Below, piece after piece: positions 12,920 through 21,349 of a stretch of 31,235 bases of DNA (the stretch's first letter is position 1; every line of letters starts with the position of its first letter). A model generated the notes under the pieces. That model worked only from the letters and a program-made list of their open reading frames with translations, was not told where the DNA came from and ran no database searches. The position numbers and the translations under genes are program-made. The DNA comes from Thermoplasmatota archaeon (GTDB lineage: Archaea > Thermoplasmatota > E2 > DHVEG-1), in NCBI GenBank assembly GCA_048629575.1, contig JAIWHQ010000001.1, positions 1 to 31,235 on the forward strand. The letters run 5' to 3'.

Positions 12920-13381
12920 TTAAAACTGAAACTCTTTTGTAAAGATTTTATCCAAAATAAATTTTCTAACACAGCTGATATCTGAATCAAGATAAATAGC
13001 GGCAATTAACGCTTCAAGTGCATTGGCAAGATTCGTACGATTCGAAGAACCGTTCTGTTTAACTTCTCCTTTTCCAAGCAGAAGAAACTGACCAAGTTCC
13101 ATCTTCTCAGCAACCTTTGCTAAAAAATTATTATTCACTCCAGAAGATCTCCTGCGAGTAAGCTCCCCTTCTGAAAAATATTTATTACCTTTGTACAACT
13201 GATCAGAGACGATAAAATTGAGTATGCTGTCTCCAAAAAACTCCAAGCGCTCGTTAAATTCAAGAGGAAGGTCTGCTTCAAAAGCAAACGTCTTATGTGT
13301 AAGAGCAGTTTTCATCAAACTTTTATCTTTAAATGTGTATCCGATTTTCTTCTCAAGAAGTTCATAATCAATTTTTTTCAT
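12920..13381 (-). CDS. rnc: Ribonuclease III catalytic domain only (no dsRBD)
   Basis: ALTHKT, FNERLEFFGDSIL signature, EGELTRRRS, LANALEALIAAIYLD; stops at about 153 aa, before any dsRBD. Confidence 0.88.
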   Translation of the reverse strand: MKKIDYELLEKKIGYTFKDKSLMKTALTHKTFAFEADLPLEFNERLEFFGDSILNFIVSDQLYKGNKYFSEGELTRRRSSGVNNNFLAKVAEKMELGQFLLLGKGEVKQNGSSNRTNLANALEALIAAIYLDSDISCVRKFILDKIFTKEFQF

Positions 13382-13422
13382 AATACAAATCACATATCAG
13401 TATATCCTACATTACTGTATCG

Positions 13423-15135
13423 TTAAAAATTGATGTATTCAAATAATTTTCTACCAACATCTAAATCATCAAGTGCATGAATTAACTCGTCTTTACTCTT
13501 AAAAGGTCTTTTTGCTAGAATTCTTGCTGCTCTCTTTTTACCAATTCCTGGTATCGCCTCAATTGTTTCTCTTGGAGCATTGTTGATGTTGAGAGGAGAA
13601 GGAACTGCAGTTACGGATCTATAACCATAATCTACAATGTTTACATCAAAAAATCTATCTAATGGAAAAACACCAGGGATTCCGACAAGCAATGGATAAC
13701 TACCCAGTTGTCTACCAAACGTTAGTTTCCCATCATAGACTTCTGTAAAAACATCTTTTAAAATAGTCCCCGGGGGGATAAGTCTTTTGAGCATAGGACG
13801 TTCTATTTGCTCTCTTACCTTTCGTTTAAACCTTTTAAACTCAGCTTTATGCCGCTTAATATTCTTATTACCAAAGGAGTGCATCTTTGTATTAGGGATA
13901 GGGATAACTTGACGGAGATTGATTCTTCTTACAAGAAGATGATTGTCATATATTTGTTTTAAGAATTCGAAATCAAGTGTAAATGTGTCTTTAGTTTCAC
14001 CGATAAGACCGAAGACGAAATTAAGACCTGGGAGTAGTTCAGACAAGCCACTTTCGCCTCTCTTTGAGCCTACTTCATTTAAAAGCCGTATAGCACTCAT
14101 AATTTCGTCAGGTGATGCTTTGAGGTTATTCTTTTTAATTACGACGGGATCGACACTCTCCACGCCAAATGCAGCAACATCACCAGAGGTATGATATTTG
14201 ATAATGGTTTTTGCAATTCGCCTGCATTCCTTGGGATATCTCGCAATTATTCCAGGATTGGCATTATCGATGTGAAGAGTTTTTAGATCTGGAGCAAAGG
14301 TTCGAATTCCTGAAAATAGCTTTTCAATGGCATCTGGATTTGGTTGTGGAAATTCTAGTTCTCCAGCTCCTTTTGCCATATATGAAAAAATACATGGTTG
14401 ACTGCCGATGCGAAAATGTCTGATACCTGCATTGTATAACGCTTGAACTTCAGCTATAACATTCTTAATCGGCCTAAAACTGGGTATACCTTTACTTGGT
14501 TCGCTACAAAATGAACAACCACCAACAATACATCGAGCACAACCTCGGTATGTTTCAATTTCAGTTATGAGATGATCTGGAAAAAAAGGATGTTGTTGAA
14601 CAATGCTTGCGCCTCTAATAGCAAACTCTCGTATAGCACCAGGATCTGATCTACATAACGATGAATTAACTTCATCATAATTAAGACTGTTTTGTAATAA
14701 TTCAGAGATAACAATCTCGCCATCACCGTCTGCAATAAGGTCAAAAACATCTTCAACAACTCTAGTGTCTTGAATTTTTTTTCCGCCAGAAATTCCAAAT
14801 CCGTATCGGGCAGCTGGCCCAGTTAAAATCTTTACAGGCTCATGAACATCACTTAAAAAAGATACAAGTTCATTTGGACTAGCTGGAAAACCAGACAGAT
14901 ATCGCCCGGGAACAGACATGCCAGCAATGACGATAAGTAAATCAGATTCAGAAAGAGTTTTCAAAAGAATATTATCGTTTCGAATTTGATCAATGGTAAC
15001 ATAAAAAATCTTGGCAGTTTTATCATACCGCCATACTGCTCCTGCGATATATCGAGGATATGGACTGATATACGGGGGTACTCCAAGGCAGGTTGGTTCA
15101 TCGACATAGCCATCTAGGATCGAGACGTTTAGCAT
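13423..15135 (-). CDS. Radical SAM protein with C-terminal TRAM-like region and helix-hairpin-helix (COG1031-like)
   Basis: ILDGYVDEPTCLGVPPYISPY N-terminus, ETYRGCARCIVGGCSFC Fe-S motif, FGVES, GLNFVFGL, C-terminal LNINNA..ETIEAIPGIGKKRA HhH. Confidence 0.85.
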   Translation of the reverse strand: MLNVSILDGYVDEPTCLGVPPYISPYPRYIAGAVWRYDKTAKIFYVTIDQIRNDNILLKTLSESDLLIVIAGMSVPGRYLSGFPASPNELVSFLSDVHEPVKILTGPAARYGFGISGGKKIQDTRVVEDVFDLIADGDGEIVISELLQNSLNYDEVNSSLCRSDPGAIREFAIRGASIVQQHPFFPDHLITEIETYRGCARCIVGGCSFCSEPSKGIPSFRPIKNVIAEVQALYNAGIRHFRIGSQPCIFSYMAKGAGELEFPQPNPDAIEKLFSGIRTFAPDLKTLHIDNANPGIIARYPKECRRIAKTIIKYHTSGDVAAFGVESVDPVVIKKNNLKASPDEIMSAIRLLNEVGSKRGESGLSELLPGLNFVFGLIGETKDTFTLDFEFLKQIYDNHLLVRRINLRQVIPIPNTKMHSFGNKNIKRHKAEFKRFKRKVREQIERPMLKRLIPPGTILKDVFTEVYDGKLTFGRQLGSYPLLVGIPGVFPLDRFFDVNIVDYGYRSVTAVPSPLNINNAPRETIEAIPGIGKKRAARILAKRPFKSKDELIHALDDLDVGRKLFEYINF

Positions 15136-15267: not shown

Positions 15268-15507
15268 ATGATAAATGCATATATACTTATAATGATGAAG
15301 CCAGGGAACACAGACAAGGCTATTACAGCAATGAGAAAGATTGAAAATGTTGAAAAAATCTCGGTTGTCGCTGGCGAATATGATATTGTTGTAAGAGTGC
15401 ATGTAAAACGTCTCGAAAATCTTCTCAAAGTAACGGAGAAAATTCAGATGATAAATGGTGTGAAAAAAACAACCACTCAAGTAATTGAAAAAGAACTTGC
15501 ATTATGA
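15268..15507 (+). CDS. Stand-alone Lrp/AsnC ligand-binding (RAM) domain protein, no HTH
   Basis: MINAYILI...VVAGEYDIVVRV...INGVKKTTTQVI, the AsnC C-terminal domain pattern; 79 aa from ATG 15268. Confidence 0.88.
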   Translation: MINAYILIMMKPGNTDKAITAMRKIENVEKISVVAGEYDIVVRVHVKRLENLLKVTEKIQMINGVKKTTTQVIEKELAL

Positions 15508-16748
15508 GAATTAGAAGGAAATATCTCTTCTACGCACTTGCGTTTACCTCTGCAATTATTGCAGCAGCAGTATCGGCGATAGATGCGAAAATAATTAATG
15601 ATGTTATAACAGATGACCCATGGGCATTCGGCGTCTCGTGTTTTGTCGTAGGTACTTTTGTAACACTTATTATTGTTCTTATCTTTTCAATACCTCTGAA
15701 GGGTAAAAGTCTTGGATCAAAAATTATAGATCCATCATTTAGACGACTCAGACTTGTACGAAAAGAGGAGCTGAAATATCACACGCTCGCTGGGATCGGA
15801 AATGCTTTTCTGACGATTGGTTATTTTTTCCTTCTTTCCATGCTTGGGGATCCATCTGCTGTGCTTCCGTTCTCCCAAATCGTTATTTTATATCTTATTC
15901 TTATGGAATCAATCGTTGAAAAAAATATACCGACACTCTCTGAAATTCAATCCTCACTCATCGTAACATTCGGGGCAATCCTTGTATCAATTAGTCTTAC
16001 GGGAACTCTAACTCTTGAATCAATGGCTATAGTATTTCTTGTGATAAATCCTGCATGGGTTTTATTTTCCATCTATCAAAGAAAACTAAAGCTGTTAAAA
16101 ATTGATAAGAGACCAAATGATGCCCTTAACATCAGGTTTTGGAATGTTGTATTTGCATGCATATTCGTATTTATTTTGGTTAATATGTATGATTTATTTA
16201 TGGGAAGTAGTCATTTTCTCGCAGGGCTTTCTGCATCAATTAATCATTTTGGTTGGGTAGCACTTACAATGGCTGTCACGTTTTTTTCATATGTCTTTTA
16301 CATTCGTGCTCTTGGAATTGGAAAGGCAAGTGTCACCCAAGCTGTTCGTGCATCAACAGTTCTTTTTGCCATCCCGTTTTCTCTTCTGCTTGCATACTTA
16401 AACATTATCCCGCCATTTTCTACAGATCCAGTGATGTTGTTGATTAAAGTGATTGGTACGACTCTTGTCATTCTTGGTATTGTCTCTTTTGCTCTTAGTC
16501 TTGTGAAAGCATATGTATTCATCAATGTTAAAACAGGTGTTCCTATTGAAGAGACAATGAAGAAACTTTGGAATATCCGTGGTGTGACTCGTGTTACTGC
16601 AACTGCAGGTCCATATGATTTTATTGTTAAGATTCGAACGCGAACTCTTGTTAAAGGATATGAACAAATTATTCGGAAGATCGAAGAAATTGAAGCCATT
16701 GAAGAGTACAAATGGGAATCGGTTTTGAAGGAATGGGAAGATATCTAA
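15504..16748 (+). CDS. EamA/DMT-like membrane transporter fused to a C-terminal Lrp/AsnC RAM domain
   Basis: About 10 hydrophobic segments with DMT-like motifs (DPSAVLPFSQ, GKASVTQAV..S, VIGTTLVILG), then KAYVFINV...TAGPYDFIVKI...IEAIEEY; ATGA overlap with the upstream gene. Confidence 0.8.
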   Translation: MRIRRKYLFYALAFTSAIIAAAVSAIDAKIINDVITDDPWAFGVSCFVVGTFVTLIIVLIFSIPLKGKSLGSKIIDPSFRRLRLVRKEELKYHTLAGIGNAFLTIGYFFLLSMLGDPSAVLPFSQIVILYLILMESIVEKNIPTLSEIQSSLIVTFGAILVSISLTGTLTLESMAIVFLVINPAWVLFSIYQRKLKLLKIDKRPNDALNIRFWNVVFACIFVFILVNMYDLFMGSSHFLAGLSASINHFGWVALTMAVTFFSYVFYIRALGIGKASVTQAVRASTVLFAIPFSLLLAYLNIIPPFSTDPVMLLIKVIGTTLVILGIVSFALSLVKAYVFINVKTGVPIEETMKKLWNIRGVTRVTATAGPYDFIVKIRTRTLVKGYEQIIRKIEEIEAIEEYKWESVLKEWEDI

Positions 16749-16799
16749 TCTAATAAGAAAACTATTTCATCATTTCCGGCATTCTCATTTTGATTGATT

Positions 16800-17906
16800 A
16801 TGATTGATAAGAGACTTGAGAAACTTGCCTATGTTTTAATACATCATTCACTTAGAATAAGGAAAAATGATTTGTTTGTGATATCAGGTAGCCCGGTTGC
16901 AGCTCCATTGATAAAGGAAGTGTATAAGCAGGCGGTACAAGTTGGTGCCTACCCATTTACAAGAATAGGGATTGACGGGCTTGCTGAAACTTATTTTAAA
17001 TATGCATCTGAAAAACAACTGAAATATGTATCTCCTATCGCTAAATTCGAGATTGAACATATTGATGCGCGTCTTGCAATTATTAGCCAAGAGAATACAA
17101 AAAGTATGACAAATGTTGATCCAAAAAAGCAAGCGATGAGTAGTGTTGCTATGAAAGATATACATCAGATTTTTTTGGAGAGAGCTGCAAAAAAAGAGCT
17201 TCGATGGTGTGTTACTCAGTATCCGACAAATGCTGCTGCTCAAGATGCAGATATGTCTCTTGGAGACTATGAAGATTTTATTTTTAATGCAGCACATGTA
17301 GACAAGAGGGATCCTGTTGGTCATTGGAATAAGGTTTTCAAAGAGCAGGAAAAAGTGAGAAAGCTTATGGATTCTAAGAAACAATTGCATGTAATAGCAA
17401 AGGATACCGACTTGACTGTTTCTGTTGATGGTAGGAAATGGATTAATTGTTACGGTAGGGAAAATTTTCCTGATGGTGAAGTATTCACAGGGCCTATTGA
17501 AAATTCGGCAGAAGGCTACATTAGTTATTCTTTTCCAGTATCTCATGGTGGCCGTGAGGTAGATGATATTAAGCTTTGGTTTAAGAAGGGTAAGGTTGTG
17601 AAAGCAGAGGCTTCTAAAGGTAAAAAATTCCTTGAGTCCATGCTTGATATGGATAAGGGAGCTCGCATGATTGGGGAGTTTGCTTTTGGCTTGAATTATG
17701 GTGTTAAAAAATATACGAAAAATACGTTATTTGATGAAAAGATTGGTGGCACTATACATTTAGCTGTTGGGAGTGGGTATCCTGAGACGGGGAGTAAAAA
17801 TGAGTCAAGTCTGCATTGGGATATGATGTGTGATTTACGTAAGTTTGGCGAAGTCTATGCAGATAACGAGTTGATTTATAAAAATGGTAAGTTTTTGACT
17901 GTCTGA
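16800..17906 (+). CDS. M29 family aminopeptidase (AmpS/AmpT-type)
   Basis: KLAYVLIHHSL, NFPDGEVFTGP, IGEFAFGLN, LFDEKIGGTIHLAVG, LHWDM. Confidence 0.92.
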   Translation: MIDKRLEKLAYVLIHHSLRIRKNDLFVISGSPVAAPLIKEVYKQAVQVGAYPFTRIGIDGLAETYFKYASEKQLKYVSPIAKFEIEHIDARLAIISQENTKSMTNVDPKKQAMSSVAMKDIHQIFLERAAKKELRWCVTQYPTNAAAQDADMSLGDYEDFIFNAAHVDKRDPVGHWNKVFKEQEKVRKLMDSKKQLHVIAKDTDLTVSVDGRKWINCYGRENFPDGEVFTGPIENSAEGYISYSFPVSHGGREVDDIKLWFKKGKVVKAEASKGKKFLESMLDMDKGARMIGEFAFGLNYGVKKYTKNTLFDEKIGGTIHLAVGSGYPETGSKNESSLHWDMMCDLRKFGEVYADNELIYKNGKFLTV

Positions 17907-19915: not shown

Positions 19916-21349
19916 ATGTGCGGCATTATTGGCATTATTGGGGAAAAACCAGTTTCTCGTCTGATCTATCATAGCTTATTTGCAATACAGCATCGTGGTC
20001 AGTCGTGTGCAGGAAAACTTACCTATGATGGTAACATCCATGTGACAAAAGATGCTGGACTTGTCCGAGATGTCTTTAACGAGGAAAAAAAGATCGATAC
20101 ACCCGGAAGTGTAGGAATTGGTCACACCAGGTATTCAACCGCAGGGATGGATGATATCGGATCTTTAAAGAAAAATGCACAGCCAGAATATCTGGTAAAC
20201 CCGTTTCTTGCAGCGGTTCACAACGGCAACATATACAATTGTTTTGAACTGAGCAAAAAAACTAAGAGAAAACCACGGACAGATTGTGACATTCAATGGC
20301 TATTACTCCTCATGGCAGATAAACTCTACAAACAAGAACTAACAGTTGATATCATCTTTAAAGCATGTGAGGACATTATGCATCAACTTAAAGGGAGTTT
20401 TGCTGCTTTATATCTTGCTGATTCTGGAGACAACCCATATCTTTTTGCAATAACTGATCCTCATAAAATTCGACCATTGGTTTTAGGAAAATCTGACGGT
20501 ATGTATTGCCTTACCTCTGAGACACGGGTCTTTAAGAAAATAAATTTTGAATATGTGAGAGATATTCCAGGAGGTGCAGTTGTTGTCATTGATAAAGATG
20601 GGAATATCTACGAAAAACAGATAATCAAAAAACAAGAACTTCCTTGTATGTTTGAATACGTCTATTTTGCAAAACCTGACTCACGGATTAATGGACGATC
20701 AGTCCATAAGGTTCGTGATGAGATTGGAAGAATACTTGCAAGAGAACATCCTGTTGAAGCAGATATTGTCATCCCTGTTCCGGAATCCGGAAGAAGATAT
20801 GCAATTGGGTATACACAAGAATCCAATATTCCTATTGATGATGGAATAATGAAGGATAAAGATGAACGTTCTTTTATACAACAAACACAGGAAAGTAGAG
20901 ATAAGATTGTTGCAGAGGGTTTGTCTTTTATTCGTTCTGTTCTCGAAGGAAAACGAGTGGTGCTTCTCGACGACTCAATTGTCCGTGGGACAAACATCAG
21001 AAAACTTGTTCGAGGTTTAAGAAACGCTGGTGCAAAAGAAGTTCACGTAAGAATCGGCTGCCCGCCTCTTATTGCCCCATGTTATCTTGGAATTGATATG
21101 AGAAGTAAAAAGGAGTTTATCGCCCGAGACAATGATGGAAATATAAAACCATGGGATGCCATTGTAAAAGAGATCGATGCTGACTCCCTTGGATATATTA
21201 GTATAGAGGGGTTGAAGAAAGCTATAGGATCTGAAATTTGCAAAGGGTGCATCGAGTTTCCAGAAGGATATCCTCCTGACATGCAAAACGACGTGAAAAA
21301 AATGTTTAAAGACGATAAAACAGGAATACGAGCATACGAATGTGTATAG
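19916..21349 (+). CDS. purF: Amidophosphoribosyltransferase
   Basis: MCGI N-terminal nucleophile Cys, QHRGQ, GHTRYST, HNGNI, CMFEYVYF, PVPESG, DDSIVRGT, PCYLGID, CKGC Fe-S ligands. Confidence 0.95.
   Translation: MCGIIGIIGEKPVSRLIYHSLFAIQHRGQSCAGKLTYDGNIHVTKDAGLVRDVFNEEKKIDTPGSVGIGHTRYSTAGMDDIGSLKKNAQPEYLVNPFLAAVHNGNIYNCFELSKKTKRKPRTDCDIQWLLLLMADKLYKQELTVDIIFKACEDIMHQLKGSFAALYLADSGDNPYLFAITDPHKIRPLVLGKSDGMYCLTSETRVFKKINFEYVRDIPGGAVVVIDKDGNIYEKQIIKKQELPCMFEYVYFAKPDSRINGRSVHKVRDEIGRILAREHPVEADIVIPVPESGRRYAIGYTQESNIPIDDGIMKDKDERSFIQQTQESRDKIVAEGLSFIRSVLEGKRVVLLDDSIVRGTNIRKLVRGLRNAGAKEVHVRIGCPPLIAPCYLGIDMRSKKEFIARDNDGNIKPWDAIVKEIDADSLGYISIEGLKKAIGSEICKGCIEFPEGYPPDMQNDVKKMFKDDKTGIRAYECV

Follow-up and report, generated by a model that had tools for sequence, protein, structure and literature searches.

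A conserved archaeal gene pair combines a free RAM protein with a predicted DMT-fold carrier that bears a tethered RAM domain

What is the sensor fold of the Lrp/AsnC regulators doing at the end of a membrane carrier, and why is a second, free copy of that fold encoded directly in front of it? This question is raised by a 31,235-nucleotide (nt) stretch of DNA from a Thermoplasmatota archaeon (contig JAIWHQ010000001.1 of assembly GCA_048629575.1), the whole of which is called the window here. Three co-directional genes lie at 15268-17906: one for a free RAM protein, one for a protein in which a membrane domain is fused to a second, tethered RAM domain, and one for an M29 aminopeptidase. The conserved unit is the pair of free RAM and transporter-RAM genes. 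The explanation we favor, and hold to be somewhat better than an even bet, is that this two-gene module forms a metabolite-regulated carrier of the DMT fold with a heteromeric RAM sensor.

The free RAM gene starts with ATG at 15268 and ends with TGA at 15505-15507, and PF01037 is the sole family match of its product (Table 1). The complete open frame is only 91 residues long and therefore has no room for a helix-turn-helix (HTH) domain. Its stop codon overlaps the start of the fusion gene in the tetranucleotide ATGA (15504-15507). At the far end of the fusion protein, residues 340-408 match PF01037 above the cut-off of 25 bits. The fusion protein also has no HTH domain, its N-terminal 332 residues being membrane helices. 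The initial annotation, made from the sequence alone, had described an HTH-less RAM gene overlapping a transporter gene by ATGA and a second RAM domain at the C-terminus of the transporter; the coordinates and the domain scores (49 and 26.8 bits) bear out both descriptions. In the source annotations the relatives appear as Lrp-family DNA-binding regulators or as hypothetical proteins. The label "DNA-binding Lrp family transcriptional regulator" is wrong, because neither protein has an HTH domain.

Neither an assembly error nor a one-off can account for the fusion, which is matched by 744 clusters at 90% identity and occurs uninterrupted and at full length in 148 of the 197 genomes of the window's class. 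By family of this class (families are numbered here with the prefix f), it was found in 102/107 genomes of f1, 12/13 of f8, 25/25 of f9, and 0/32 of f6. Two families of other classes of the same phylum have it as well, and of 201 Asgard genomes sampled from the phylum to which an Odinarchaeota metagenome-assembled genome (MAG) belongs, 92 have a full-length match. One cluster holds a protein from a "Thermoprotei archaeon" MAG, and among named relatives the closest comes from Thermoplasmatales archaeon SCGC AB-540-F20.

Gene order was compared in 101 loci, with neighbors called by BLAST against the window proteins; loci with enough upstream DNA were counted as evaluable. The free RAM gene stands directly upstream of the carrier gene in 99 of the 100 evaluable loci, which cover six Thermoplasmatota families and the Odinarchaeia. 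Coupling of the free RAM gene to the fusion was thus found wherever the neighborhood could be judged, save in a single genome (G081), where a free RAM gene with 77% identity lies on a different contig. The two genes overlap by 4 nt or are separated by no more than 32 nt, one paralogue with 343 nt between them being the exception. The free RAM gene of the Odinarchaeota MAG codes for 85 residues and stops 4 nt short of the carrier gene. Some genomes have a second, more divergent carrier-RAM gene with 48-55% identity (L039:4998-6257, minus strand; also genomes G071, G076, and G048). The RAM partner of the L039 copy lies 343 nt upstream (L039:6601-7020, minus strand) in an open frame of 139 residues.

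On the strength of a predicted structure, the membrane part of the fusion is a DMT-fold carrier, distantly EamA-like, that belongs to a family without a Pfam model. Hydropathy gave about 10 membrane segments after a basic N-terminus (MRIRRK). Both ends of the membrane domain would thus be cytoplasmic, and the RAM domain is expected in the cytoplasm because of the basic N-terminus and the 10 transmembrane helices. An AF2 model of the fusion protein was built from an alignment of 29 family members with 23-91% identity to the window protein (mean pLDDT 84.3, pTM 0.78). In this model no more than 2 residues separate the last transmembrane helix (309-331) from a domain of the order beta-alpha-beta-beta-alpha-beta (334-407). 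A Foldseek search against the PDB returned DMT carriers only among the top 36 matches (E 4e-6 to 1e-3), with SLC35B1, LicB, TPT, the CMP-sialic acid transporter, Vrg4, YddG, and PfCRT at the top. An independent comparison of the membrane model with 48,161 representative chains by VIA-align ranked LicB (Z 28.8, root-mean-square deviation 2.3, 253 aligned), TPT (25.9), PfCRT (23.0), Vrg4 (22.2), and YddG (21.3), and the best helical match outside the DMT carriers reached only Z 8.7.

Taken together, the 10-helix DMT carriers (LicB 7b0k, TPT 5y78, YddG 5i20, SLC35, Vrg4, and PfCRT) resemble nearly the whole membrane domain (Z 20-29, 253-304 aligned) and have the same helix count, and the window protein would share their topology, with N- and C-terminus inside. 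They differ in that their sequence identity to the window protein is only 9-14%, and in that none bears a RAM domain or has a RAM subunit as partner. Look-alikes of the protein in the ESM Atlas belong to EamA clusters (feature score 0.95, structural TM 0.76/0.83). A profile-profile alignment to the five canonical EamA proteins of the same genome, which themselves score 65-112 bits per half on PF00892, was weak and collinear (E 0.016 over 273 columns); column-shuffled controls gave E 0.5-0.8 over 14-23 columns. Several polar or charged residues are invariant in the membrane domain: D27, D76-P77, E135, E147, R193, D206, N209, R211, and R268. Scans of the window protein found no Pfam or NCBIfam family for the membrane domain, PF00892 was in none of the 120 listed relatives (precomputed Pfam column), and a PDB sequence search with the fusion-family profile matched the RAM part alone and nothing in the membrane domain. 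Ten RAM-less relatives of the membrane domain (326-455 residues) likewise have no Pfam family. One of them, in the metagenome contig Ga0172370_10006110 (L107:1919-3004, plus strand; 336 residues, 27% identity), overlaps by 4 nt an open reading frame of 361 residues (L107:3001-4011, plus strand) that looks by eye only like a tryptophanyl-tRNA synthetase, and no RAM gene was found near it at this locus.

Both RAM domains have the fold of the known stand-alone RAM proteins and Lrp/AsnC regulators. Those compared were DM1 (2cvi/2e1a/2z4p) and FL11 (PH1519) of P. horikoshii, STS042 (2zbc) and Grp (ST1022) of S. tokodaii, and TTHA0845 (2djw) of T. thermophilus. The family profile matched the stand-alone proteins 2cvi (E 5e-13), 2e1a (2e-12), and 2zbc (1.8e-11), and by VIA-align the tethered domain of the model is closest to TTHA0845 (Z 13.8), PH1519 (12.4), and STS042 (12.3). 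Its predicted elements are strand 334-342, helix 348-356, strands 361-366 and 373-379, helix 382-395, and strand 399-407. The free RAM protein aligns end to end with the 75-residue protein of 2cvi/2e1a, GEYD to GEYD and TTT to TST (E about 7e-6). The window pair is unlike these assemblies in that it has no DNA-binding part, its partner is a membrane carrier, and the tethered copy has motifs of its own. BLASTP gave no alignment between the two RAM copies of the window; they are too diverged for it, and a recent duplication is therefore ruled out.

Conservation was mapped over 100 orthologous pairs of free and tethered RAM domains. The glycine before the aspartate is invariant in both copies (free G36, tethered G369; 100% each), and the aspartate itself is kept at 100% in the free copy (D39) and at 96% in the tethered one (D372). 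At the T-x-T position the free copy has T68 (98%) and T70 (100%), and the tethered copy has Y/F402 and W404 (97%). The C-terminal motif is E74-K75-E76 (97-100%) in the free copy and K409-E-W411-E412 in the tethered copy, which also has the motif R380-x-L-x-K384-G-Y386-E387 (97-100%), with no counterpart noted in the free copy. The G-x-x-D and T-x-T positions are those which we take, from the work on DM1, FL11, and ST1022, to hold an amino-acid ligand by its backbone. In the free copy D39, T68, and T70 are kept at 98-100% from Thermoplasmatota to Odinarchaeia, with isoleucine in place of T68 in the two Odinarchaeia sequences. In ST1022 the residues approximately aligned to T68 and T70 are T132 and T134, which were mutated by the depositors in work on a glutamine complex (PDB entry titles). 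Mean charge over the pairs is +4.1 for the tethered and -0.3 for the free domain; in the window itself it is +1 and +4, respectively. Charge complementarity of the two copies was discarded as a general rule, the window pair being positive on both sides.

Pairing of the soluble RAM protein with the transporter-bound RAM domain, as the initial annotation had supposed, is what structure prediction returns. A complex model was computed for the tail of the fusion protein (330-414, with alignment) and the free RAM protein (16-row alignment). It gave an ipSAE of 0.81, and the best of three controls gave 0.00; the mark applied is reached by 58 of 80 solved complexes and by 2 of 110 mismatched pairs. 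At least 97% of the contacts were common to the runs, and the pLDDT of the partner was at least 91. The predicted interface joins tail residues 363-367 with free residues 73-77 and tail residues 405-411 with free residues 31-34, in a reciprocal strand pairing as in the canonical RAM dimer. Independent support for pairing comes from the near-universal adjacency and translational coupling of the two genes across phyla.

Known RAM ligands are amino acids, which bind at the interfaces between dimers and shift the conformation or the association state of the protein (PMC2995911). The P. horikoshii proteins offer a precedent for a free RAM protein that joins a RAM-bearing partner, since the stand-alone DM1 co-assembles in vitro with full-length FL11 (PMC2995911). 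By the mechanism we propose, the translationally coupled gene of 79 residues would supply a free RAM subunit, and this subunit would pair with the tethered RAM domain through the usual beta-sheet dimer interface to form a heteromeric module on the carrier. A small molecule of the cytoplasm, most likely an amino acid, would then bind the module and alter its conformation or association state. This change would bias the alternating-access cycle of the carrier, because the linker to the tenth transmembrane helix is only about 2 residues long, and the outcome could be trans-inhibition or trans-activation.

Among known systems, those nearest in function are the GlnK-AmtB pair and MetNI with its C2 domains. 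In the methionine ABC importer MetNI, C-terminal C2 domains (ACT-like, with a ferredoxin-like fold that binds amino acids) are fused to a transporter subunit at its cytoplasmic end, pair up, and slow transport when the internal ligand is high. MetNI is an ABC ATPase and not a secondary DMT carrier, its domains belong to another family, and its pair is homodimeric with no separate soluble subunit. GlnK, a small soluble ferredoxin-like metabolite sensor of the PII type, is encoded in the same operon as AmtB, the ammonium channel that PII binds and plugs. The PII trimer has loops that reach into the exits of the channel, and AmtB has no fused sensor. The window transporter, unlike AmtB, would carry half of the sensor itself.

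Several observations count against a carrier that is regulated in this way. The initial annotation had called the membrane domain a roughly 10-helix EamA/DMT transporter; the helix number and the DMT fold stood, and the Pfam EamA assignment did not, since PF00892 is not reached (best 13.5 bits, E 0.091, N-terminal half only, cut-off 28.2). Profiles of the N- and C-terminal halves, compared by hhalign, aligned in a plausible register at E 0.34, without a significant sequence repeat. The tethered RAM domain has Y/F-x-W in place of T-x-T, and a lone heterodimer may form no pocket, because the known Lrp assemblies place the ligand between two dimers. The high ipSAE may reflect likeness to solved RAM homodimers rather than binding of the window pair, and the complex model does not discriminate the predicted heterodimer from tethered-tethered or free-free homodimers. 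Covariation between the proteins was scored as mutual information with average product correction over the 100 pairs (effective number of sequences about 59). The top scores were about 2-fold enriched in interface pairs; the median rank of the 25 contacts listed was 3737 of 6715, in a set where many contact columns are invariant and phylogeny is uncontrolled. Finally, the genes downstream of the pair, purF in f1 and a gene resembling 5'-methylthioadenosine (MTA) phosphorylase in f8 and f9, point to amino acids no more than to metabolites of purine or methionine salvage.

The initial annotation had placed the aminopeptidase in the same system, as the source of amino acids whose flux is gated. 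An M29 gene does follow the pair after about 50 nt, as it had stated (start at TTG 16794 or ATG 16800, that is 45 or 51 nt past the fusion-gene stop). Among the compared loci, M29 is directly downstream in 40 of about 100, all of them in f1 (36/63) and f2 (4/6), which belong to one order, and it was not found beside the pair in the loci of f8, f9, f11, f16, f26, or the Odinarchaeia. The gene was therefore rejected as a part of the conserved system, and the idea that the carrier handles amino acids freed by this enzyme depends on a neighbor particular to one lineage. In the remaining f1 loci the gene directly downstream is purF (21) or another or none (6). The usual co-directional downstream neighbor in f1 is purF, which in many loci comes just after M29; loci with this neighbor include L004, L005, L014, L017, L019, L020, L038, and L040. 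In the window M29 and a NosD-like gene stand between the pair and purF. M29 in f1, and in the window the NosD-like gene too, gives the impression of having been inserted at this place. In f8 (7/11) and f9 (10/13) the gene directly downstream resembles MTA/purine-nucleoside phosphorylases (PF01048 E 4.5e-44; TIGR01694 258 bits against a cut-off of 274.85), for example at L021:6256-7005 and L026:6185-6952 (both plus strand) and at 15 other f8/f9 loci. None of these three genes is directly downstream in f11, f16, or f26, and in the Odinarchaeia orc1/cdc6 takes this place.

These neighbors lend themselves to another account, which we judge unlikely, of a ligand-regulated carrier whose substrate or effector comes from purine, nucleoside, or methionine-salvage metabolism (for instance glutamine as the purF substrate, a purine base or nucleoside, MTA, or methionine). 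In its favor, two lineages have different neighbors linked to purines: purF follows directly or nearly so in most f1 loci, and the phosphorylase-like gene is directly downstream in 17 of the 24 evaluable f8/f9 loci. The DMT carriers in the list of structure matches move very diverse metabolites. Against it, these are just two independent neighborhoods, as synteny within a family is inherited; f11, f16, f26, and the Odinarchaeia have neither neighbor, and the known RAM ligands are amino acids.

A second alternative, to which we also give a small chance, is that the pair is a membrane-anchored signaling device. The DMT-RAM protein would be a transceptor or an anchor that holds or releases the free RAM protein depending on substrate or ligand, and the released protein would join Lrp-type regulators and alter transcription, by analogy to the GlnK-AmtB and Mlc-PtsG sequestration systems. 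The co-assembly of DM1 with full-length FL11 (PMC2995911) speaks for such an exchange of subunits, as do two further stand-alone RAM genes in the genome and two frames with an AsnC-type HTH, of 178 and 155 residues, which are possible partners. The 4-nt overlap argues in the other direction, as it suggests 1:1 synthesis of a stable complex and not of a diffusible messenger. Moreover, no regulator gene is kept beside the pair across the compared loci, and the membrane domain has many invariant polar or charged residues, as in a working carrier. The absence of a full-length Lrp protein was dropped as an argument on this point: PF01037 has four frames in the window's genome, none long enough for an HTH domain, yet AsnC-type HTH frames exist and the genome is 79% complete.

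The two HTH matches in the window's own genome (G000) are at C8:13988-14110 (the 178-residue frame) and C111:4-87 (the 155-residue frame). Their C-terminal halves gave no PF01037 score; these frames may encode Lrp-like regulators whose RAM domains have diverged far. The two further stand-alone RAM genes (about 77-80 residues) lie on contig C4 (features at L042:1018-1356 and L042:1381-1677, both plus strand) and contig C113 (L041:1483-1716, minus strand). One of them directly follows a gene for a protein of 112 residues, by eye an HTH with a Cys-rich tail; this could be a split Lrp-like regulator.

That the RAM pair is a constitutive structural or oligomerization module, serving assembly, stability, or localization of the carrier without ligand sensing, is rather improbable: the loss of T-x-T from the tethered copy, the view that certain Lrp-like proteins of archaea do not bind amino acids (PMC2995911), and non-sensing uses of Lrp-like folds such as sirohaem decarboxylase AhbA/B (structural match Z 9.9) would fit it, and the conservation of D39, T68, and T70 at 98-100% in the free copy is hard to explain without a ligand site.

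The assembly state of the sensor allows a bolder proposal, which we regard as doubtful. Under the membrane, four tethered and four free RAM domains would close into a one-sided hetero-octameric ring whose symmetry is C4 and not the D4 of the Lrp octamer. The amino-acid sites would lie between heterodimers, and ligand-driven assembly or opening of the ring would gate four DMT carriers simultaneously. Such a ring would explain the need for a separate free subunit, because the N-termini of a RAM homodimer face opposite sides of the disc and would misfit a single membrane. If this is true, stand-alone RAM proteins, long without an explanation, would have a definite role apart from transcription.

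The features of the window are collected in Table 1. Divergently upstream of the pair are two genes at 12920-13393 and 13423-15135 (both minus strand); one encodes a radical-SAM protein with helix-hairpin-helix motifs, the other an RNase III nuclease domain of 157 residues without a double-stranded RNA-binding domain. This radical-SAM/RNase III pair is also upstream in loci L034 and L036, and the radical-SAM gene alone is found in other f1/f2 loci. In f9 a PHO4 phosphate transporter gene lies divergently upstream of the pair, and in f8 two PhoU/TrkA-C genes lie upstream. Genes for C25 (gingipain-like) peptidases recur 0.6-2 kb from the pair in many f1 loci (e.g. L035:6347-8584, plus strand); their position and orientation are not fixed, and they fit a protein-degrading lifestyle.

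Table 1. Positions of the RAM-carrier pair and associated features in the window, with the basis of each assignment.
Feature	Positions	Strand	Basis or remark
Candidate archaeal TATA box TTTATAAAA	15225-15233	+	About 35 nt 5' of the free RAM start codon, by sequence reading
Free (stand-alone) RAM protein, 79 residues, no HTH	15268-15507	+	PF01037 E 5.6e-13, 49 bits
Fusion protein, 414 residues	15504-16748	+	About 10 hydrophobic segments and a C-terminal RAM domain
Predicted DMT-fold membrane domain, residues 1-332	15504-16499	+	Hydropathy, AF2 model, structure comparison, conservation
Tethered C-terminal RAM domain, residues 333-414	16500-16748	+	PF01037 26.8 bits, profile and structure matches
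M29 aminopeptidase	16794-17906	+	PF02073 E 8e-94; variable downstream neighbor, not core
purF (amidophosphoribosyltransferase)	19916-21349	+	TIGR01134 E 4.5e-111, 372 bits against a cut-off of 350

Transporters with a fused ligand-binding regulatory domain are a known general type, of which a RAM domain on a DMT carrier is a new version. Our literature search found no paper that combines a RAM domain with an EamA, DMT, or transporter fusion, and the solved DMT structures matched here have no such regulatory domain or subunit. If the pair does act as a metabolite-regulated carrier whose RAM sensor is heteromeric, a membrane carrier would be controlled directly and post-translationally by the Lrp/AsnC sensor fold. 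Stand-alone RAM proteins, whose physiological significance was considered unclear in a 2010 review of archaeal Lrp proteins (PMC2995911), would then have a concrete function. Labels that call these fusion proteins Lrp-family DNA-binding regulators need correcting. The module occurs in a single copy; it is common among sediment Thermoplasmatota and present in close to half of the Asgard genomes sampled. Its task in these uncultured archaea is probably a basic one, concerned with nutrients or metabolite balance.

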